Source: a virus. Taken from it: a DNA stretch of 12,257 nucleotides. The translations under genes and the position numbers were made by a program. Under the pieces are notes generated by a model. It ran no database searches, was not told the origin of the DNA, and saw nothing but the letters and a program-made list of their open reading frames with translations. The stretch is taken from the UHGV virus genome UHGV-0107510. One strand, given 5' to 3'. Positions 3,741 to 11,810 of the stretch are shown in pieces. Within the stretch, counting starts at the first letter, position 1. Each line of letters begins with the position of its first letter.

Positions 3741-4790
3741 GTGCGGGTATTACTTCGACCTGTTCTGGTACCGGAACTCGGTCTGGTTATCGTTAAGCCA
3801 GACCGTGAATCAATGTCAGTATTCCATAACGGCAGAATATTGGTGGAACCGGAACCCAAAAACATGCGCAGTCTTCCGTCCGGCGTCGTTGCAGCCGTTA
3901 GCCAGCCGTTGGCTGAGGATAAAACATTACTACCATTTTTCAGCGATGAGCGGGTTATTCGTGCAGCAGGTGGTGCAGGTGCACTGTCTGACTGGTTATT
4001 ACGTCACGTGAAATCCTGCCAGTGGCCACACGGCGATTATCATCACAGCGAAACAGTCATTCACCGTTACGGTACCGGCGCGATGGTGTTGTGCTGGCAC
4101 TGTGACAACCAGCTGCGCAACCAGACATCAGAATCACTCGATCAACTTGCTCAGCAGAATCTGGTTGCCTGGATGATTGACGTCATCCGTCACGCAATAA
4201 GCGGTACGCAGGAGAGGGAGTTATCGCTGGCCGAATTATCCTGGTGGGCGGCCTGCAATCAGGTGGTGGATGCACTACCTGAGGCAGTAGCGCGTCGTTC
4301 GCTGGGATTACCGGTGGAAAAAATCCGCTCCGTATACCGTGAGAGTGACATCGTACCGGGAGAACAGACAGCCATCAGCATACTGAAGCAGCGCACAAAA
4401 AATATTGCGCTGCCACTTCACGTCCACCAGCAACAAAATCCACCACAGAAAAAAACGGTTGTCAGTATCGCCGTTGATCCGGAGTCTCCTGAATCGTTCA
4501 TGAGGCGGCCTAAACGTCGCCGTTGGGTTAATGAGAAATACACGCGCTGGGTAAAGACACAGCCGTGTGCGTGTTGTGGTAAGCCAGCTGACGATCCGCA
4601 TCACCTGATTGGTCATGGTCAGGGGGGAGTGGGAACAAAGGCCCACGACATTTTCACGCTACCGTTGTGCCGGGAGCACCACAACGAACTTCATGCAGAC
4701 CCGCTGAAGTTTGAGAAAAAGTACGGCTCTCAGATTGAGTTAATTTTTCGTTTTCTTGATCACGCCTTTGCGACTGGCGTGCTCGGGTAA
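3741..4790 (+). CDS. DUF968-family protein (YdfU-like) with a C-terminal Cys/His HNH-like motif
   Basis: 349-aa ORF with GTG start and strong GGAGGT Shine-Dalgarno (3732-3737). Length and position (just upstream of rusA/Q) match YdfU-type prophage proteins. The C-terminus carries CACCGKP…HHLIGHGQGG…CREHHNELH. Confidence 0.8.
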   Translation: MRVLLRPVLVPELGLVIVKPDRESMSVFHNGRILVEPEPKNMRSLPSGVVAAVSQPLAEDKTLLPFFSDERVIRAAGGAGALSDWLLRHVKSCQWPHGDYHHSETVIHRYGTGAMVLCWHCDNQLRNQTSESLDQLAQQNLVAWMIDVIRHAISGTQERELSLAELSWWAACNQVVDALPEAVARRSLGLPVEKIRSVYRESDIVPGEQTAISILKQRTKNIALPLHVHQQQNPPQKKTVVSIAVDPESPESFMRRPKRRRWVNEKYTRWVKTQPCACCGKPADDPHHLIGHGQGGVGTKAHDIFTLPLCREHHNELHADPLKFEKKYGSQIELIFRFLDHAFATGVLG

Positions 4791-4802: not shown

Positions 4803-5162
4803 ATGCTCATAGATTTGGTTTTACCTTACCCGCCGACGGTGAACACTTACTGGCGACGCCGTGGCAGCACATATTTTATCTCGGAGGAGGGAAAGCGTTA
4901 TCGCCGGGCTGTGGCGCTTATTGTTCGCCAGCAGCGGCTGAAATTAAGCCTGTCCGGAAGGCTGGCGATAAAGGTGATTGCAGAGCCACCGGATAAGCGT
5001 CGTCGCGACCTGGACAACATTCTGAAAGCGCCGCTGGATGCGCTGACGCATGCGGGAGTGCTCATTGATGACGAGCAGTTTGATGAAATCAATATTGTAC
5101 GTGGTCAGCCGGTATCTGGTGGACGGCTGGGTGTGAAGATTTACAAAATTGAGAGTGAGTGA
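4803..5162 (+). CDS. rusA: Holliday junction resolvase RusA
   Basis: 119-aa product; the PPTVNTYW N-terminus and the central RRRDLDN…DAL…DD motif match the RusA family. GAGGTG Shine-Dalgarno upstream; canonical nin-region position before Q. Confidence 0.9.
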   Translation: MLIDLVLPYPPTVNTYWRRRGSTYFISEEGKRYRRAVALIVRQQRLKLSLSGRLAIKVIAEPPDKRRRDLDNILKAPLDALTHAGVLIDDEQFDEINIVRGQPVSGGRLGVKIYKIESE

Positions 5163-5170
5163 GCGTAAAT

Positions 5171-5731
5171 ATGATATATCCGGAAATTACAGGCAAAAGC
5201 GGCGAACATTTACGCCTGAACACGCTGGAAGCAGTCTGGATCCAGGGGAAATTACGGATGTGGGGGCGGTGGTCGTATATAGGCGGGGGTAAATCCGGAA
5301 ATATGTTTAACCGGTTACTGGTTTCGAAGAAGCTGACGAAAACAGCAGTTAAGGAGGTTTTACGCAGAATGAAGAAATCCGGGCTGGATAAACCGGAACT
5401 TGAGGCATTTTTTCGGGATATGACCAGAGGGAAGCAGAAGAGCTGGTTGTCACATTGTACAGACACAGAGGCGTTGATTATTGATCGCGTTATCAGTGAG
5501 GTGCTTGGGGAATATCCCGGGCTAATCAATATTCTCCGGCAAAGGTACGAAGGACGAGGAATGAGCAAACTGAAAATGGCCGAAAGGTTAAATGCAGATC
5601 ATCCTGAGTGGACGTTGGTTACGTGCAGACGCCGAATTGATCAATGGTTGGGGATATCTGAATTTATGTTACATGCCCCCATGCGTATGGCTTTTGTTAC
5701 AGAGAAAAAAATGTTGCAAACTGATCAATAA
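5171..5731 (+). CDS. Q: Late-gene antitermination protein Q family (alternative GTG start at 5159 overlapping the rusA stop)
   Basis: Sits immediately after rusA and immediately before a short promoter-terminator unit, as Q genes do. Contains a WGRWSY…GGG segment resembling the WGxW region of Q-family antiterminators such as DLP12 QuuD. Family call is part positional, part motif. Confidence 0.65.
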   Translation: MIYPEITGKSGEHLRLNTLEAVWIQGKLRMWGRWSYIGGGKSGNMFNRLLVSKKLTKTAVKEVLRRMKKSGLDKPELEAFFRDMTRGKQKSWLSHCTDTEALIIDRVISEVLGEYPGLINILRQRYEGRGMSKLKMAERLNADHPEWTLVTCRRRIDQWLGISEFMLHAPMRMAFVTEKKMLQTDQ

Positions 5732-5742
5732 ACTGCTTCAAT
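5714..5742 (+). promoter_or_regulatory. Candidate late promoter pR' (-35 TTGCAA 5714-5719, -10 TTCAAT 5737-5742, 17-bp spacer)
   Basis: Overlaps the 3' end of Q and lies about 60-90 bp upstream of an intrinsic terminator, the expected pR'-qut-tR' layout. Both hexamers are imperfect; TATAAG at 5746-5751 is an alternative -10. Confidence 0.3.
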
Positions 5743-5804
5743 CCGTATAAGCTTCGCAAGGCTGTATCGCGAGGCGAAACGCAAGTTTTTTCGCACAAGG
5801 AAGC

Positions 5805-5824
5805 CACCGGAAGGTGGTTTTTTG
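5805..5824 (+). terminator. tR'-like intrinsic terminator downstream of Q
   Basis: Stem CCACC (5805-5809) / GGTGG (5814-5818) with a GGAA tetraloop, followed by TTTTTT. Confidence 0.55.
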
Positions 5825-5946
5825 TGTCCGCGATATACAGCAGCGCAATAAATTCGCTGGTGGTTATTAATACCGTTCTTTCAGCTTGCTGGCTTTTTCG
5901 ACAAGAGTTATTGGTGTGTCACGTTAACCGGAAAAGGGAAAAAGAC

Positions 5947-6144
5947 ATGCTGAAACAGCAGGATATGACCGAAACCGCCAGAGTGGTGTTTAATGAATTA
6001 AGCGTCACCGAACCGGCGACAGTCGGGGAGATTGCACAGAATACGTACCTTTCACGCGAACGCTGTCAGTTAATACTGACCCAGCTTGTTATGGCGGGTC
6101 TGGCAGACTATCAGTTCGGTTGTTACAGACGCCTTCAGTCATGA
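5947..6144 (+). CDS. Small hypothetical protein (65 aa), possibly a winged-helix DNA-binding protein
   Basis: ATG at 5947 preceded by a purine-rich tract (GGAAAAGGGAAAAAGAC). Product MLKQQDMTETARVVFNELSVTEPATVGEIAQNTYLSRERCQLILTQLVMAGLADYQFG… has an HTH-like core. Its stop codon is embedded in a terminator hairpin. The listed ATG at 5824 overlaps tR' and is unlikely. Confidence 0.5.
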   Translation: MLKQQDMTETARVVFNELSVTEPATVGEIAQNTYLSRERCQLILTQLVMAGLADYQFGCYRRLQS

Positions 6145-6154
6145 AGGCTTTTTT
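6131..6154 (+). terminator. Intrinsic terminator
   Basis: Stem GCCTTC (6131-6136) / GAAGGC (6143-6148), loop AGTCAT, followed by TTTTTT (6149-6154). Confidence 0.5.
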
Positions 6155-6294
6155 ATTTGTGGTAAATGGGCGGCTGGTGGGTGTTAGGGGCACTCACCAG
6201 CCATCTGCTCATGCGTCCGGATCACAAGCAAACCTCAGGCCCACTGCTTTGCGCAAAAGCAGAATGAGCCTATCAGAGACAGGCTTAATGATCC

Positions 6295-7353
6295 ATGCTT
6301 AGTACTGTAAAAATATCCAGTTGTGAGTTAATCAACGCCGACTGCCTGGAATTTATCCGGTCGTTACCCGAAAATTCTGTTGACCTGATAGTCACGGACC
6401 CGCCGTACTTTAAAGTGAAGCCTGAGGGCTGGGATAACCAGTGGAAGGGCGACGATGATTACCTGAAATGGCTGGACCAGTGTCTTGCGCAGTTCTGGCG
6501 GGTGCTGAAACCTGCCGGAAGTCTTTACCTGTTCTGTGGCCATCGCCTGGCGTCTGACATTGAAATCATGATGCGTGAACGCTTCAGTGTGCTGAACCAT
6601 ATTATCTGGGCGAAGCCGTCCGGACGCTGGAACGGGTGCAACAAGGAAAGCCTGAGGGCGTATTTCCCCGCCACAGAGCGCATTCTGTTCGCGGAACATT
6701 ATCAGGGGCCGTATCGCCCGAAAGATGCCGGGTATGAGGCGAAGGGCAGGGCACTGAAACAGCATGTGATGGCTCCGCTGATTGCTTACTTTCGTGATGC
6801 GCGTGCTGCCCTGGGGATAACGGCAAAACAGATTGCTGATGCCACAGGAAAGAAAAACATGGTGTCGCACTGGTTCAGTGCCAGCCAGTGGCAGCTACCG
6901 GACGAAAGCGATTATCTGAAATTACAGGCGCTGTTTGCCCGGGTGGCAGAAGAGAAGCATCAGCGGGGTGAACTGGAAAAGCCCCACCACCAGCTGCTGG
7001 AGACGTATACTTCACTGAACCGGCAGTATGCGGAACTGCAGAGTGAATATAAGCTTCTGCGGCGGTATTTTGGCGTGACGGCGCAGGTGCCGTACACGGA
7101 TGTGTGGACGCATAAACCGGCGCAGTACTATCCCGGGAAACATCCGTGCGAAAAACCGGCAGAAATGCTGCAGCAGATAATCAGTGCGAGCAGTCGTCCG
7201 GGTGACCTGGTTGCAGATTTCTTCATGGGGTCAGGTTCGACAGTCAAAGCAGCGATAGCGCTGGGACGTCGTGCAACTGGCGTTGAGCTGGAGACTGAAC
7301 GTTTTGAGCAGACGGTCAGGGAAGTACAGGATTTAGTCAGTCAGAATGGATGA
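6295..7353 (+). CDS. Orphan DNA methyltransferase, beta-class N6-adenine/N4-cytosine type
   Basis: 352-aa ORF with the catalytic DPPY motif near the N-terminus (IVTDPPYF) and the AdoMet-binding FxGxG motif near the C-terminus (DFFMGSGSTVKAAIALG). That motif order is characteristic of beta-class amino-methyltransferases. No restriction endonuclease gene is adjacent. Confidence 0.85.
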   Translation: MLSTVKISSCELINADCLEFIRSLPENSVDLIVTDPPYFKVKPEGWDNQWKGDDDYLKWLDQCLAQFWRVLKPAGSLYLFCGHRLASDIEIMMRERFSVLNHIIWAKPSGRWNGCNKESLRAYFPATERILFAEHYQGPYRPKDAGYEAKGRALKQHVMAPLIAYFRDARAALGITAKQIADATGKKNMVSHWFSASQWQLPDESDYLKLQALFARVAEEKHQRGELEKPHHQLLETYTSLNRQYAELQSEYKLLRRYFGVTAQVPYTDVWTHKPAQYYPGKHPCEKPAEMLQQIISASSRPGDLVADFFMGSGSTVKAAIALGRRATGVELETERFEQTVREVQDLVSQNG

Positions 7354-7393
7354 TATTGCAGGATTAGTTACGTACCGTTATTATCCTGCGCCC

Positions 7394-7469
7394 GGCCCTT
7401 TAGCTCAGTGGTGAGAGCGAGCGACTCATAATCGCCAGGTCGCTGGTTCAAATCCAGCAAGGGCCACCA
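7394..7469 (+). tRNA. ileZ: tRNA-Ile (anticodon CAU, ileX-like; formally could be tRNA-Met)
   Basis: 76 nt with full cloverleaf: acceptor GGCCCTT/AAGGGCC, anticodon loop CTCATAA (CAT at 7427-7429), T-loop TTCAAAT, encoded CCA. Closely resembles E. coli tRNA-Ile2 (ileX) as I recall it. Gene names follow the ileZ-argN-argO trio described upstream of stx in Stx phages. Confidence 0.85.
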
Positions 7470-7478
7470 TATCACATA

Positions 7479-7555
7479 CCGCCATTAGCTCATCGGGATA
7501 GAGCGCCAGCCTTCGAAGCTGGCTGCGCGGGGTTCGAGTCCTCGATGGCGGTCCA
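7479..7555 (+). tRNA. argN: tRNA-Arg (anticodon UCG)
   Basis: 77 nt: acceptor CCGCCAT/ATGGCGG, D-stem GCTC/GAGC, anticodon stem CCAGC/GCTGG with loop CTTCGAA (TCG at 7513-7515), T-loop TTCGAGT, discriminator T then CCA. Confidence 0.8.
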
Positions 7556-7568
7556 TTATCAGCATCAT

Positions 7569-7645
7569 GCGTTGTTAGCTCAGCCGGACAGAGCAATTGC
7601 CTTCTAAGCAATCGGTCACTGGTTCGAATCCAGTACAACGCGCCA
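7569..7645 (+). tRNA. argO: tRNA-Arg (anticodon UCU, reads AGA/AGG)
   Basis: 77 nt: acceptor GCGTTGT/ACAACGC, D-stem GCTC/GAGC, anticodon stem ATTGC/GCAAT with loop CTTCTAA (TCT at 7603-7605), T-stem ACTGG/CCAGT, T-loop TTCGAAT, discriminator G then CCA. Confidence 0.85.
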
Positions 7646-7659
7646 GACTTATTTTTCCC

Positions 7660-7683
7660 GGCTCGCTTTTGCGGGCCTTTTTT
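7660..7683 (+). terminator. Intrinsic terminator after the tRNA cluster
   Basis: Stem GGCTCGC (7660-7666) / GCGGGCC (7671-7677) with one G:T wobble, TTTT loop, followed by TTTTTT (7678-7683). Confidence 0.55.
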
Positions 7684-7814
7684 GTCTCCGCGCCACGCCC
7701 GGCGCATATCAACCACAGAGCTTTCGGGGGTGAGCTTACGGAGTGGTCAGTGTGACTTTCTCTGTGGGCAGATCGCTCCCGGGCGTTGGCTCACCCACCC
7801 AAAGGAACGTCACG

Positions 7815-8246
7815 ATGTTTGGAATCTTCAAAAAGAAAACCCGCAGAGCGGCTGCGGAAATTAAAAAGTTTGAAAAACGCGATCTGGCACAAGCAGTGAT
7901 TAACGCTGCATACCTGGTGGCTTATGCCGATGGTGAATGTGAGGCTTCCGAGAAAGCGAAGATCGAACAGGTATTACGTAACCAGCCCACCTTGTCCGCG
8001 TTTACGTCAGAAATTAATGCGATTAGCGCAACCATTATCGGTCAGCTGGATACGAACTTTAAAATTGGTCGTCGTGCGGCGTTACGTGAGATCGAGGATG
8101 TGAAACACGATACGCGTGAAGCGGAAGACGTGCTGGATGTGGCGGTGGCCATTGCCGAAGCAGACGGCGAAATAGAGCCGGAAGAGCGCAAGGTGCTGGA
8201 AGAGATTGCCGGTGTTCTGGGCCTTCGTCTGGAGAATCATCTGTGA
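7815..8246 (+). CDS. TerB-family (tellurite resistance TerB-like) protein
   Basis: 143-aa product from ATG 7815, with AAGGAA Shine-Dalgarno at 7802-7807. It has the duplicated acidic TerB signature (…LVAYADGECEASEKAKIEQVL… and …AVAIAEADGEIEPEERKVLEEIAGVLGL…), which aligns by eye with canonical TerB. The listed ATG at 7743 lacks a Shine-Dalgarno and adds a non-conserved extension. Confidence 0.75.
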   Translation: MFGIFKKKTRRAAAEIKKFEKRDLAQAVINAAYLVAYADGECEASEKAKIEQVLRNQPTLSAFTSEINAISATIIGQLDTNFKIGRRAALREIEDVKHDTREAEDVLDVAVAIAEADGEIEPEERKVLEEIAGVLGLRLENHL

Positions 8247-8254
8247 CGGTAAAA

Positions 8255-8407
8255 ATGCGTCTGGCTGTGGTTGCGCTCCTGCTGTTTCTGGTGGTGATGG
8301 TGGACTTCAGCAGCCGGATAATGTCAGTGCTGGCTGACGGTGTGCTGGTGGCGGGTGTGGTGGTTGTTGCTTTCCCGTTGCTGAAAAAGAAAGCATCAGG
8401 CGATTAG
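8255..8407 (+). CDS. 50-aa hydrophobic membrane peptide (two predicted TM segments)
   Basis: MRLAVVALLLFLVVMVDFSSRIMSVLADGVLVAGVVVVAFPLLKKKASGD: two hydrophobic stretches and a KKK-containing C-terminus. Starts 8 nt after the TerB-like stop, suggesting co-transcription. Below the ORF-track length cut-off; found by manual translation. Confidence 0.4.
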   Translation: MRLAVVALLLFLVVMVDFSSRIMSVLADGVLVAGVVVVAFPLLKKKASGD

Positions 8408-8647
8408 CAGGGTATCAGTTACCCGTTGAAATTTTTAAATACCTCACAATTCAGGCGGTTGACTGTTGTCTGGTTTGCGGGGAGTTTGTTAAAAGAAACT
8501 GGCATGGTGAATCCCCCTGTGCGGAGGGGCAATCAGCAACTGGTGTTTTGTCACCGACCCTTATCCTTTCTGTGCGGGTTCAGGTGCTGATACTGAACTC
8601 ACCGGGAGGCACCCGGCACCATGCAATGGCACATAGCGCCACTCTCC

Positions 8648-8674
8648 AGCCCCTCTCCGGAGGGGCTTTCTTGT
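8648..8674 (+). terminator. Intrinsic terminator candidate
   Basis: Perfect 8-bp stem AGCCCCTC / GAGGGGCT with loop TCCG, followed by a T-rich tail TTCTTGT. Confidence 0.5.
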
Positions 8675-8678
8675 GGGC

Positions 8679-8705
8679 AAAAAAAAAGCCCGAGTGGGTT
8701 CGGGC
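8679..8705 (-). terminator. Minus-strand intrinsic terminator
   Basis: On the + strand, A9 (8679-8687) is followed by hairpin GCCCGA-GTGGGT-TCGGGC (8688-8705). Read on the minus strand this is a GC hairpin followed by U9. No T-run follows on the + strand. Confidence 0.5.
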
Positions 8706-8760
8706 AACAGCATGAGATATACATTTTTATAATCGAATGGATTTTAACCAGAATTCATAA

Positions 8761-8787
8761 GGCTGCGCAACTGCGCGGCCTTTTTCG
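8761..8787 (+). terminator. Intrinsic terminator candidate
   Basis: Stem GGCTGCGC / GCGCGGCC (8 bp, one G:T wobble) with loop AACT, followed by TTTTT (8781-8785). Confidence 0.5.
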
Positions 8788-8888
8788 TATTGCGGGCTGT
8801 AGTCTTCCTCCTGCCATTGTCCTGTAACTTCCGGACTTCAGCCCGTTCCCTCATCTGACTCACAACATTATCCCGACCGGGAGGATTC

Positions 8889-10868
8889 ATGACATTTAAA
8901 CACTACGATGTGGTCAGGGCGGCGTCGCCGTCAGACCTTGCGGAGCGACTGACACAAAAACTGAAGGAGGGGTGGCAGCCATTTGGCAGCCCTGTCGCCA
9001 TCACGCCTTATACCCTGATGCAGGCCATTGCGGCGGAAGGTGATGTCACCACACCTGTGGTGGTGAAGCCGTCGGATGGAGAAGGCACAGTTATCAGCAC
9101 CACCAGCGAACCGGAGTATTACTTTGTTGTTGTTCTGGCGGGGCAGTCAAACTCAATGTCTTTTGGTGAAGGGCTGCCGCTGCCGGAGACATATGACCGT
9201 CCGGACCCGCGTATTAAACAGCTGGCGCGTCGCAGTACGGTGACGCCGGGTGGTGCCGCCTGTAAATATAACGACATCATTCCGGCAGACCACTGTCTGC
9301 ATGATGTGCAGGATATGAGTAACCTGAATCATCCTGAAGCGGACTTGTCAAAGGGACAGTACGGTTGTGTGGGGCATGCTCTGCATGTTGCCAAAAAGCT
9401 GCTGCCGTTTATGCCTGCGAATGCGGGTATCCTTCTTGTTCCATGTGGCCGTGGCGATTCGGGATTTACTGCGGGGGCCGAGGGGGCGTTTAACGAAGCG
9501 TCGGGAGCGACCGCAGGCTCGTCCCTGTGGGGGGCGGATAAACCGCTGTATCATGACCTGGTCAGCAGAACCCGTGCGGCCCTGAAGAAAAATCCGAAGA
9601 ACGTGCTGTTATCAGTGATCTGGATGCAGGGAGAAAAAGATGTCAGTTCGGGGAGACATGCAGAACACAATGCGCTTTTCCTTGCCATGGTAAATCAGTT
9701 CCGTACGGAACTGGCAGATGTGGCAGAGCAGTGTACTGGCGGGACAACGGCCAGCGTCCCGTGGATTTGCGGTGATACCACGTACTACTGGAAGGAAAGG
9801 TATGCAGCGCCGTATGAGGCGGTTTACGGTGGGTATAAAGGCAAAGTTGCGCAGAATATTCACTTTGTGCCGTTGATGACGGATGAGCATGGTGTGAATG
9901 TGCCGACAAACGAGCCGTCAGAAGATCCGGACATTATCCCGGCGGGATACTATGGCGCTGCGTCACGCACTGCCAGTAACTGGACGGCAGCCGATCGTAA
10001 AACGCACTTCAGTTCATGGGCGCGAAGAGGCCTTGTTTCAGACCGCCTGGCAGGTGCCATTTTGCAGTACGCCGGGCGGACATTATCGTTCCTTACCGGG
10101 CAGAGCGCACCGCAGTCGGGTGGTACAACTCCTGTCAGTCCGGGGACACCGGATGTTGAGAAACCGCAGGATGGCGGTGTTGCTGGTACTGGTCATGATG
10201 AGGCCGTGAGCAGTACCAGGACGGTGGCTGAATATGATGCGAACAGTGGAAATGGTGCATTGACAGAGCAGCAGTGGGGCGCTTCCGGCGGCAAAGGCAC
10301 TGTGACTGATGACGGTGGACGGAAAGCGCTGCGACTGGAAAAACAGCCCGGTAAACTGACGTCCTGGAAAATGTTCCGTACTGTTGCAGTGGAGGAGGCA
10401 AAAAATCTTCTCAGCAAGGGGGGTGAAATTGCCGTACGGTTCAAAATTCCGGATGGAAGCGAACTGGTGAACGGACAGTTTGTCTTTGGTCTCTACTGGC
10501 CGGTGTCGCAGTGGGCGTCAGGCGCGGCAGCAAACAGTATGCTGGCATCATTCTTCCTTCAGACGGATGCATCAAATCTGAATCTTATGCACCACAAGGG
10601 CACGTCGAATGCACAACTGGGTACATTTGGTGCGTTTGACCATAACTGGCATACGGTTGTTTTCCGCTTTGCGGGAAATAACAGCGAAAGAGTCGTTCCG
10701 GTGATTGATGGTACAGAGCAGACGGCGTTTGACCTTGTGATGTGGACAAATGATGGCTTTACAGCAGATACGCTGACGCTGACAGATATCACGGGGACAA
10801 AAGCGACGTATCCGGTACTGCTTGATACGGTCACTGTCAACGTTAACGAAAGCCGGGCATCAGCATAA
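8889..10868 (+). CDS. nanS-p: NanS-p-like prophage sialate O-acetylesterase (DUF1737 N-terminal domain, esterase core, C-terminal domain after a Gly/Thr/Pro-rich linker)
   Basis: 659-aa ORF with GGGAGG Shine-Dalgarno. The N-terminus MTFKHYDVVRAASPSDLAERLTQKLKEGWQPFGSPV matches the DUF1737 start of the gene found just downstream of stx in Stx phages; the esterase core starts near VVVLAGQSNSMSFG. Confidence 0.85.
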   Translation: MTFKHYDVVRAASPSDLAERLTQKLKEGWQPFGSPVAITPYTLMQAIAAEGDVTTPVVVKPSDGEGTVISTTSEPEYYFVVVLAGQSNSMSFGEGLPLPETYDRPDPRIKQLARRSTVTPGGAACKYNDIIPADHCLHDVQDMSNLNHPEADLSKGQYGCVGHALHVAKKLLPFMPANAGILLVPCGRGDSGFTAGAEGAFNEASGATAGSSLWGADKPLYHDLVSRTRAALKKNPKNVLLSVIWMQGEKDVSSGRHAEHNALFLAMVNQFRTELADVAEQCTGGTTASVPWICGDTTYYWKERYAAPYEAVYGGYKGKVAQNIHFVPLMTDEHGVNVPTNEPSEDPDIIPAGYYGAASRTASNWTAADRKTHFSSWARRGLVSDRLAGAILQYAGRTLSFLTGQSAPQSGGTTPVSPGTPDVEKPQDGGVAGTGHDEAVSSTRTVAEYDANSGNGALTEQQWGASGGKGTVTDDGGRKALRLEKQPGKLTSWKMFRTVAVEEAKNLLSKGGEIAVRFKIPDGSELVNGQFVFGLYWPVSQWASGAAANSMLASFFLQTDASNLNLMHHKGTSNAQLGTFGAFDHNWHTVVFRFAGNNSERVVPVIDGTEQTAFDLVMWTNDGFTADTLTLTDITGTKATYPVLLDTVTVNVNESRASA

Positions 10869-11594: not shown

Positions 11595-11810
11595 ATGTAC
11601 CAGATGGAAAAAATCACAACAGGTGTGTCATACACCACGTCAGCGGTGGGAACGGGCTACTGGTTCCTGCAGTTGCTGGACAGGGTTTCCCCGTCTCAGT
11701 GGGCGGCAATAGGCGTGCTGGGGAGTCTGCTGTTTGGTCTGCTGACATATCTGACGAACCTGTATTTCAAAATTAAAGAAGACCGGCGTAAGGCGGCGCG
11801 GGGAGAGTAG
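11595..11810 (+). CDS. S: Phage holin (Stx-phage S-like)
   Basis: 71-aa product [71 protein letters not shown] has two hydrophobic segments and a charged C-terminal tail. Near-identical, as I recall it, to the 933W-type holin. GGAG Shine-Dalgarno 9 nt upstream. Two Met codons at positions 1 and 4 (possible dual start). Confidence 0.85.

Follow-up and report, generated by a model that had tools for sequence, protein, structure and literature searches.

The window analysed here, the whole 12,257-nt stretch of the virus genome UHGV-0107510, carries a DNA methyltransferase gene whose product, judged by its sequence, is a close relative of the known M.EcoGII and hence not new as an enzyme; M.EcoGII itself is a common tool for chromatin footprinting and RNA labelling. 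Directly in front of the gene lies a conserved, structured RNA leader of about 135 nt, which belongs to no described RNA family and is the main candidate control element specific to the methylase. Taken together, the sequence identity, conserved gene order and covarying RNA structure observed here suggest that this is probably an anti-restriction methylase of the phage late operon, insulated by terminators and gated at translation by its leader.

Table 1. Features between the Q-like gene and the tRNA genes of the window (P0–P4, RNA helices).
Feature	Position	Strand	Basis or remark
Q-like late antiterminator gene	5159..5731	+	PF06576 DUF1133, E 6e-103; PF06530 Phage_antitermQ, E 6e-8; phrog_753, E 3e-74
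Hairpin and U-run just 3' of Q, in tR'-type position	5793..5827	+	-19.6 kcal/mol, z -3.5
Conserved non-coding block, ACAAGAGTTATTGGTGTGTCA	5901..5921	+	Upstream of small gene
Small winged-helix protein gene	5947..6144	+	65-aa ORF
P0, intrinsic-terminator-like hairpin and T-run	6131..6158	+	Terminator scan; overlaps small-gene stop codon
Conserved structured methylase leader, ~135 nt	6160..6294	+	Between terminator and start codon
Leader helix P1	6166-6181 with 6193-6212	+	
Chi, GCTGGTGG, inside P1 5' arm	6173..6180	+	
Leader helix P2	6219-6229 with 6283-6294	+	Covers the 12 nt before AUG (ATG at 6295)
Leader helix P3/P4	6238-6252 with 6259-6270	+	
M.EcoGII-family beta-class N6-adenine methyltransferase gene	6295..7353	+	352 aa; PF01555; near-identity to M.EcoGII
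Three tRNA genes, anticodons CAU, UCG, UCU	7394..7645	+	ARAGORN; Rfam tRNA

Gene order and genomic setting

The host element is a stx-negative, Stx-phage-like lambdoid prophage with the methylase module in its late operon. The order is Q-like gene, hairpin terminator, small winged-helix gene, P0, the 135-nt leader, methylase, three tRNA genes, cargo and lysis (Table 1), in agreement with an earlier note on this DNA, which had placed the methylase between Q and the tRNAs. The phrog_753 family matched by the first of these genes is annotated as “anti-termination protein Q-like,” and the tRNA trio is the ileZ-argN-argO set of Stx-type phages; the same set (or tRNA-Ile/Arg/Arg) is found in the matching phage and RefSeq records. 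In the lambdoid late operon, as in Stx phages with their StxS RNA (PMC7547250), Q antitermination acts at PR'-tR'; there also Q and a terminator are followed by tRNAs, cargo and lysis genes, and whatever lies downstream, silent in the lysogen, is transcribed by read-through once the prophage is induced. The window departs from this standard arrangement by the methylase module, a second terminator and a long structured leader, all between tR' and the tRNAs.

The module is widespread. Of 5,426 complete E. coli genomes, 1,743 contain at least 80% of a 1,961-base query (window positions 5740–7700), and 296 phage records match it in part. Prophages of Buttiauxella, Klebsiella and Salmonella have the module downstream of three unrelated Q families (PF06530, PF06323 and DUF1133) and before the lysis genes. 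The hairpin just 3' of Q, which by its position would act as a tR'-type terminator, belongs to a Q-specific segment, since in Stx2a phages that carry another Q allele the match to the window starts only at about position 5846; a comparable hairpin and T-run precede the shared block in the Klebsiella loci. Between this hairpin and the small gene is a non-coding block whose columns are invariant across Escherichia, Buttiauxella, Klebsiella and Salmonella copies. A promoter scan found no sigma-70 consensus in it, and no sigma-70-like promoter on the + strand from 5100 to 8300, thus none between Q and the tRNAs; the late promoter PR' was not located in the window. The block could be an independent promoter of a kind that a simple scan misses.

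No restriction endonuclease was found among 17 ORFs of the window searched with Pfam or six searched with PADLOC, and none adjoins the methylase among the genes called in the related Buttiauxella, Klebsiella and Salmonella loci. The only nuclease-type domains in the window are those of RusA and, as a weak HNH-like match, of a DUF968 protein, both encoded by ordinary lambdoid nin-region genes. The description of the methyltransferase as an orphan enzyme is thus upheld.

The methyltransferase and its recognition of DNA

The methyltransferase ORF matches PF01555 (N6_N4_Mtase) in a Pfam scan (E 2.7e-43) and the MTase_II model of PADLOC (E 3e-161). DPPY is at residues 35–38 and F-M-G-S-G at residues 310–314, which confirms the beta-class order (DPPY before FxGxG) recognized earlier. 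Over its full length, including the central domain, the protein is identical to published M.EcoGII at 327 of 349 positions (about 94%); this is a lower bound and uncertain by a few residues, since the reference sequence was extracted by machine from a PDF, the supplement of PMC11551740, with some reading errors. Identity to the enzyme of phage 1720a-02, which PMC5778455 names as very similar to M.EcoGII, is higher (343 of 352 residues, 97%). M.EcoGII and the window enzyme are also of near-equal length (349 and 352 aa) and both located in prophages; the window allele, known from its sequence alone, differs by few substitutions, several of them in the central domain, and by a C-terminus three residues longer. 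Motif order, full-length identity and location in a lambdoid E. coli prophage all point to an allele of the M.EcoGI/M.EcoGII family, prophage-borne beta-class enzymes which methylate adenine at N6 in any context.

M.EcoGII and its paralogue M.EcoGI are prophage enzymes of E. coli O104:H4 C227-11 that methylate adenine in DNA, ssDNA and RNA without sequence specificity (Murray et al., 2018; PMC5778455). Relaxed specificity, phage origin and a presumed anti-restriction role are also attributed to the promiscuous phage adenine methyltransferases of Drozdz et al. (cited in PMC5778455) and to T-even Dam, but these are alpha-class enzymes, with the opposite motif order and an unrelated sequence context.

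The earlier note had assigned target recognition to the long central insert and had proposed a comparison with REBASE or by BLASTP to find the motif, with epigenetic control of a lysogen as one possible role. The insert itself stands out, in that solved structures found by a PDB sequence search align only at approximately residues 8–142 and 269–343, leaving the middle of the protein without a solved relative; the same search found no structure of M.EcoGII, its matches being the catalytic core of other beta-class enzymes. Beta-class enzymes normally have a target-recognition domain at this place, and a handful of central residues distinguish the window allele from M.EcoGII, so that a sequence-specific orphan enzyme, reading a motif through its insert and serving epigenetic control or self-protection in the lysogen, could be imagined. 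Such an enzyme is nevertheless highly unlikely here. The identity of about 94% is to an enzyme without sequence specificity, which tells against a motif-reading role for the insert, and reconstructed M.EcoGII ancestors that are clearly more divergent than the window allele are still non-specific (PMC11551740). [quoted passage not shown] Since M.EcoGII, which it closely matches, methylates adenine whatever the surrounding sequence, the window enzyme probably has no recognition motif to assign. A REBASE motif search, or a search for a new motif in the methylome of a lysogen, would probably find nothing, because enzymes of this family have no such motif and lysogens do not express them.

The upstream control region

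The terminator placed by the earlier note at the end of the small gene was recovered by a terminator scan as P0, with a stem at 6131–6148 (7 bp, 4-nt loop) followed by TTTTTTATTT. Its fold has an energy of -11.2 kcal/mol (z -3.5) and its stem covaries: all four of the core pairs have changes on both sides in some sequences, for example in 22 of 73 at one pair. A GC-rich hairpin directly before a U-run, conserved among relatives, is what an intrinsic terminator should look like; the terminator portions of the Rfam families rseX, Phe_leader and Spot 42 match P0 weakly, far below thresholds. E. coli-type copies have a strong U-tract; in those of the Klebsiella, Salmonella and Buttiauxella types it is weak (TTTCTGCTGTG), and termination there may therefore be partial. 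P0 also lies just 5' of the leader where the small gene is missing, and is thus part of the upstream control region of the methylase, not simply of the small gene. Of the suggestion that the two genes are separately regulated, the terminator, real and conserved, remains; its assignment to the small gene alone does not.

From P0 to the methylase start codon extends the leader, which the earlier note had missed. As a single sequence it folds with -62.1 kcal/mol (z -5.6). In the consensus structure from RNAalifold 98.1% of cells are paired, vs. 27–44% when partners are slid; in a set of 55 leaders, 52 of which were obtained independently of the seed 20-mer, the values are 94.6% and 24–38%, respectively. 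Both-side changes occur in this set at 15 pairs, compared with 3.6 in shuffles, a number reached in none of 500. Of 47 Enterobacterales loci with the methylase, 45 also have the leader, across at least 15 genera; with search filters off, it is absent from two Erwiniaceae loci (L153 and L162), and no credible copy lies upstream of the Proteus, Vibrio, Shewanella and more distant relatives. Matches to the leader model end 6 nt past the methylase ATG in 44 of 45 loci, and 9 nt past it in the remaining one (L156). Leader nucleotide identity across genera is 77–87%, vs. 65–80% for most flanking coding segments. There was no match to positions 5000–8900 at E<=1 in Rfam 15 (4,227 families), and only sub-threshold noise to 6120–6310 at E<=10.

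Coding in the spacer was also considered, as a 60-aa ORF spans 6120–6302 and P1 has an AUG at its base (6166). Indels of a single nucleotide interrupt the frames, and in the aligned rows, read by eye, the frame from AUG 6166 stops after 3, 7, 33 or more than 40 codons depending on the copy; a conserved peptide was rejected.

Upstream of P0, the 65-aa ORF is coding, as indicated by a strong third-position bias in its substitutions across genera (99, 100 and 335 at codon positions 1, 2 and 3). The HTH-like character noted earlier is refined by an AlphaFold2 model with mean pLDDT 89.7, which predicts a winged helix with the layout H-H-H-beta-hairpin (helices 4–16, 26–33 and 37–49; strands 53–56 and 59–62). 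Foldseek matched it only to generic winged-helix domains, best to those of IclR/MarR regulators and of O-methyltransferases, with TM-scores up to 0.83 against IclR domains. The Pfam TrmB match scores 18.1 bits, below the gathering cut-off of 25.6; the protein is predicted to share the TrmB/MarR/IclR fold class and is not a demonstrated member of the TrmB family. It also matches phrog_331 (“unknown function”) and has homologs in 335 clusters, those named being all from Enterobacterales. An exhaustive search of 1.84 billion representatives gave only 62 matches, most of them variants or pieces of this one narrow family.

The position of this gene had suggested a likeness to the controller proteins of restriction-modification systems. 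C proteins of Type II systems (e.g., C.PvuII and C.AhdI) are of the Xre helix-turn-helix type, act on C-boxes and time a nuclease. In common with them, the small protein is of a DNA-binding type and encoded just upstream of a methyltransferase, but it has a winged-helix fold, no match to the PADLOC Control_protein model or to HTH_3 or HTH_31 in Pfam, and no nuclease partner, and its gene and the methylase can occur apart. We conclude that it is no controller of a restriction-modification system.

The protein might instead be a controller dedicated to the methylase, binding the P1 inverted repeat as DNA, or the leader as RNA, to time expression. Its gene adjoins the methylase in 29 of 45 species-level loci and in 99 of 105 leader-carrying viral contigs; the fold is common to many DNA-binding regulators, and some winged-helix domains, such as those of SelB, bind RNA; P1 is an inverted repeat of 15 pairs; and the recognition helix, RCQLILTQLV.AGL, is retained in an otherwise strongly diverged variant. 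This is quite unlikely all the same, as the leader and methylase occur without the small gene in the other 16 of the 45 loci, while two loci (L026 and L064) retain the small gene, P0 and half of P1 with the methylase replaced by another gene. The lack of a control-protein match counts against it as well, as do the lack of any predicted promoter on which regulation could act and the behavior of P1, which covaries as RNA and in which G-U type changes are tolerated on the + strand alone. Although often found beside the methylase, the winged-helix protein is dispensable, and the two are separable in both directions. In L026 the replacing gene is a 237-aa ORF that appears AraC-like by eye.

The same two loci enter into another question, whether the spacer is conserved as DNA, as a Chi-bearing recombination joint between lambdoid modules, and not as a functional RNA. 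Their homology to the module ends immediately after P1; the invariant 5' arm of P1 includes a Chi site while the 3' arm is variable; and Chi is in excess, with eight sites in the window vs. 0.38 expected. Against this are the compensatory double changes at the 15 pairs described above, the pairing restored where Chi has been lost (L170, L171, L174 and L175; in Rosenbergiella and Tatumella copies and in L175 by compensating changes in the P1 3' arm), and the continuation of conservation for ~115 nt beyond Chi, to the start codon. Model scores are also strand-specific: all copies but the three most divergent score 110–164 bits on the + strand, and no score on the - strand exceeds 24 bits. Conservation as a recombination joint in place of an RNA is therefore distinctly unlikely, slightly more so than the dedicated controller, although the two readings of the spacer, as joint and as RNA, are mutually compatible.

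Expression and probable role of the methylase

In the available portions of PMC5778455 the enzyme is treated alone, and the upstream small gene, terminator and leader are not described. A literature search gave nothing relevant on methylase expression or regulation in Stx phages, nor any described leader, and no account of how phages control the enzyme was found in the M.EcoGII literature as far as it was accessible. Hypermethylated DNA transformed 4–5 orders of magnitude less well than Dam-methylated control DNA (PMC5778455). This and the slowed growth mentioned above mean that the phage must dose its methylase tightly.

The favored explanation, a late-operon anti-restriction methylase under terminator and leader control, takes the non-specific activity, lysogen silence and toxicity of the enzyme from published work. 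In the lysogen, transcription from upstream would halt at the terminators, so that the toxic methylase would not be made. On induction, Q-modified polymerase would pass them; termination at P0 and its override by Q are read only from the architecture and consensus of the region. Pairing of the 12 nt before the AUG in P2 would then limit or time translation. The methylase made would broadly methylate progeny phage DNA before packaging. On entering the next host, the methylated DNA should resist restriction of Types I, II and III. Protection of phage DNA from host restriction is the most likely role of the enzyme, as the earlier note had supposed under the name of self-protection and as was inferred by the authors of the M.EcoGII work too (PMC5778455).

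The leader has the covarying structure, the fixed position at the gene start and the paired initiation region of a gating leader, and probably keeps the toxic methylase off; this repressive role we infer from its structure, and it could instead activate expression or serve as a processing site. In lying directly 5' of an ORF, with a covarying multi-helix fold and a helix that pairs pre-AUG nucleotides, it resembles translational riboswitches, RNA thermometers and autogenous leaders. It differs from these classes in having no Rfam match, a terminator which precedes rather than follows it, and Chi in one arm. A more ambitious reading, possible though unlikely, is a new class of effector-responsive regulatory RNA gating a toxic, sequence-independent DNA/RNA adenine methyltransferase. 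Such a leader might sense SAM or SAH, or might be bound or methylated in an autoregulatory loop by the methylase itself, as RNA is among the substrates of M.EcoGII; the winged-helix protein could then be an optional modulator.

The leader could also be of use to those who wish to express the enzyme safely. More conserved than the gene it precedes, and covarying, it is a testable candidate for control of methylase dosage.

The methylase and its surroundings

The window comes from a lambdoid prophage that resembles Stx phages and lacks stx, and corresponds to its late region; at the DNA level it is matched best by phage 1720a-02 and by Stx2a-converting phages. All of the elements named in the earlier note, which was made from the sequence alone, lie where it had placed them (see table). 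The nin-like region holds two toxin-type modules, one Hok/Gef and one RelE-family/HTH_3. The place between the tRNAs and nanS-p, occupied by stxAB in related phages, is taken here by the TerB-domain and DUF3927 genes (7743-8407); phage PPyecE_EH1910 and Klebsiella prophages carry the same pair. The first tRNA is a tRNA-Met by ARAGORN (CAU anticodon) and a tRNA-Ile (ileZ) in matching RefSeq and phage records; with lysidine modification it presumably decodes Ile. The interval separating the TerB-like cargo from the NanS-p esterase gene contains the sRNA STnc100 (Rfam match, 144.5 bits, E 3e-33) and, abutting it on the opposite strand, AsxR, whose 63 bits are exactly its Rfam gathering threshold.

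Positions of features in the window
Feature	Position	Strand
DUF1627 protein	67-612	
ORF6N antirepressor-like protein	1205-1753	
Hok/Gef toxin peptide	1968-2180	
RelE-family toxin and HTH_3 antitoxin pair	2283-2991	minus
DUF968 protein	3741-4790	
RusA	4803-5162	
Q-like antiterminator	5159-5731	
Second hairpin and U-run	5793-5827	
Invariant non-coding block	5901-5921	
Small gene to methylase	5947-7353	plus
P0, terminator stem of the earlier note, plus T-run	6131-6158	
Hairpin of P0, from terminator scan	6131-6148	
P1, long hairpin	6166-6181 with 6193-6212	
P2, long-range helix	6219-6229 with 6283-6294	
P3/P4, inner hairpin	6238-6252 with 6259-6270	
Three tRNAs	7394-7645	
First tRNA	7394-7469	
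TerB-like gene	7743-8246	
DUF3927 gene	8243-8407	
STnc100	8473-8678	plus
AsxR	8683-8735	minus
NanS-p-type esterase	8889-10868	
Holin S	11595-11810	
Chi sites	904, 4424(-), 5856, 6173, 6987(-), 8344, 9100(-), 11546	

The methylase ORF (352 aa) matches PF01555 at E 2.7e-43, with DPPY at residues 35-38 and FMGSG at residues 310-314; its central third is without a structural relative, because solved relatives align to the two ends only. It is identical to the prophage adenine methyltransferase M.EcoGII at 327 of 349 residues (94%), a lower bound because M.EcoGII was compared as given in Supplementary Table S1 of PMC11551740, machine-read from the PDF with visible errors. Identity to the methylase of phage 1720a-02, called "a very similar MTase" to M.EcoGII by Murray et al. 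(PMC5778455), is 343/352. Among 5,426 complete genomes of E. coli, 1,743 contain at least 80% of a 1,961-base query (window 5740-7700) that covers the module. Together with the identity to M.EcoGII, this makes the enzyme an already known and very common one.

Murray et al. (PMC5778455) describe M.EcoGII as modifying adenine in any sequence context, in ds DNA, ss DNA and RNA. They also report that it is not expressed in the native lysogen, that constitutive expression slows growth, and that E. coli is transformed 4-5 orders of magnitude less well with DNA heavily modified by it. The largely non-specific behaviour persists in reconstructed ancestors (PMC11551740). The earlier note had pictured a sequence-specific orphan methylase active in the lysogen. 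The identity to M.EcoGII contradicts this, so that its idea of assigning the enzyme a recognition motif started from a wrong premise, and the epigenetic role is judged wrong, M.EcoGII being silent in its native lysogen. The note was partly right in its interpretation: the window ORFs scanned include no restriction endonuclease, in line with its remark on the neighbourhood, and its reading of an orphan methyltransferase with a probable anti-restriction role is upheld.

A structured leader upstream of the methylase

In aligned Escherichia, Buttiauxella, Klebsiella and Salmonella prophages, the ~150-nt spacer varies less than the coding DNA that flanks it, and a 20-mer from it is present in at least 120 viral contigs. 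A common fold was obtained for 73 distinct spacers, in which 98.1% of cells pair, compared to 27-44% with the partners slid 1-3 columns, and nine pairs are changed on both sides. This set was selected by an exact 20-mer and is a biased sample; to remove the bias, a covariance model was run on 80 loci found via the methylase protein in species-representative genomes. In 45 of the 47 Enterobacterales loci it matches immediately 5' of the methylase, including loci whose protein identity is as low as ~58%, and all but one of these matches (L156, at ATG+9) end at ATG+6. The genera include Escherichia, Salmonella, Klebsiella, Enterobacter, Citrobacter, Kluyvera, Buttiauxella, Mixta, Kosakonia, Trabulsiella, Erwinia, Rosenbergiella, Tatumella and others. 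Upstream of the Proteus, Vibrio, Shewanella and more distant methylase relatives there was no credible match, even with filters off. Nor was there one, on the same terms, in two Erwiniaceae loci, L153 (Erwinia endophytica) and L162 (Pantoea sp.), with methylases 73-75% identical to the window's; these are possible natural "leaderless" comparators.

Among 55 leaders, 94.6% of cells pair (24-38% in slid controls), and compensatory double changes occur at 15 pairs versus 3.6 in shuffles (0/500). Model scores are 110-164 bits on the plus strand, except in the three most divergent copies, and at most 24 bits on the minus strand, and G-C to G-U accounts for many of the one-sided changes; the structure is therefore that of the plus-strand transcript. 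In the 12 genera compared, leader identity to the window's is 77-87%, and that of most flanking coding segments 65-80%. No Rfam 15 family matches it, and as far as this and literature searches show, it is a previously undescribed example of a familiar type of element.

The conservation might also be explained at the DNA level. Chi (GCTGGTGG) occurs eight times in the 12.3 kb, five times on the plus strand, versus 0.38 expected from shuffles, a density about three times that of the E. coli chromosome. One site lies within the invariant 5' arm of P1, and in two prophage loci, L026 (1252-2300, minus strand) and L064, homology ends right after P1. However, P1 pairing is restored even in copies without Chi, and conservation continues up to the start codon, so that a DNA-level explanation may add to the RNA one but cannot replace it.

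The small winged-helix protein

The small ORF upstream, with 335 homologous clusters (those named all Enterobacterales) and substitutions of 99/100/335 at codon positions 1/2/3 versus 12 other genera, is a real gene, as the earlier note had it. AlphaFold2 confidently predicts a winged helix (35-sequence alignment; pLDDT 89.7), for which Foldseek finds generic winged-helix domains only (IclR, MarR/OhrR, O-methyltransferase dimerisation domains, SelB, Z-alpha). A TrmB Pfam match is sub-threshold (18.1 vs 25.6 bits), and PHROGs assigns the protein to phrog_331, of unknown function. The family is narrow (62 among 1.84 billion representatives). A second variant (MTETAAAVLHFLPADKWVTPRMMTRTTGVSEARCQLILTQLVLAGLAKDNGGYGNKFRRCQ), in L011 and 22 other viral contigs, differs from the window's over most of its length; the third helix, RCQLILTQLV.AGL, is kept almost exactly, which suggests that it carries the function. 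About 25-45 nt upstream of the gene, a non-coding block (ACAAGAGTTATTGGTGTGTCA) is invariant across four genera and stays so behind three different Q families; it has no match to the sigma-70 consensus in a promoter scan, and could serve the small gene as a promoter of its own or as an element of its 5' UTR.

The earlier note had likened the small protein, by the position of its gene, to a controller protein, which is judged wrong; a related reading makes it a dedicated controller of the methylase. The gene immediately precedes the leader in 99 of 105 viral contigs, but among 45 species-representative genomes in only 29. L026 and L064 retain the gene, with P0 and the first half of P1, and have the methylase replaced, in L026 by a 237-aa ORF, AraC-like by eye, with the tRNAs still following; the break is a mosaic joint inside the leader. 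The linkage is thus frequent and not obligatory, and the small protein is therefore not an obligatory partner or controller. The idea of a dedicated controller is further weakened by the variation in P1, which is of RNA type rather than DNA type, and no PADLOC control-protein model matches the protein.

Terminators, start region and a proposed model

The hairpin and T-run identified by the terminator scan fold at -11.2 kcal/mol, and P0 with its U-rich tail precedes the leader in nearly every locus, with or without the small gene. The terminator reported earlier is thus present, but it belongs to the region that controls the methylase and does not simply end the small gene. A second hairpin and U-run lie downstream of the Q-like gene. 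The module is found behind three unrelated Q families, and no sigma-70 promoter was predicted by the scan between the Q-like gene and the methylase. P2 pairs the 12 nucleotides immediately preceding the ATG at 6295, as is typical of translational gating. This start codon lacks a canonical GGAGG in front of it; UGAUC(C/U) is conserved at -6 to -1, and little weight is given to its complementarity with GAUCA, close to the 16S rRNA 3' end.

Enzyme identity, architecture and RNA structure are shown by the analysis; how the module is regulated is inferred. Combining this architecture with what has been published on the enzyme's silence and toxicity leads to a model in which the terminators would hold the methylase off in the lysogen. 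After induction, Q-modified polymerase would read through them, the leader would limit or time methylase translation, and the methylase would then modify progeny DNA ahead of packaging.
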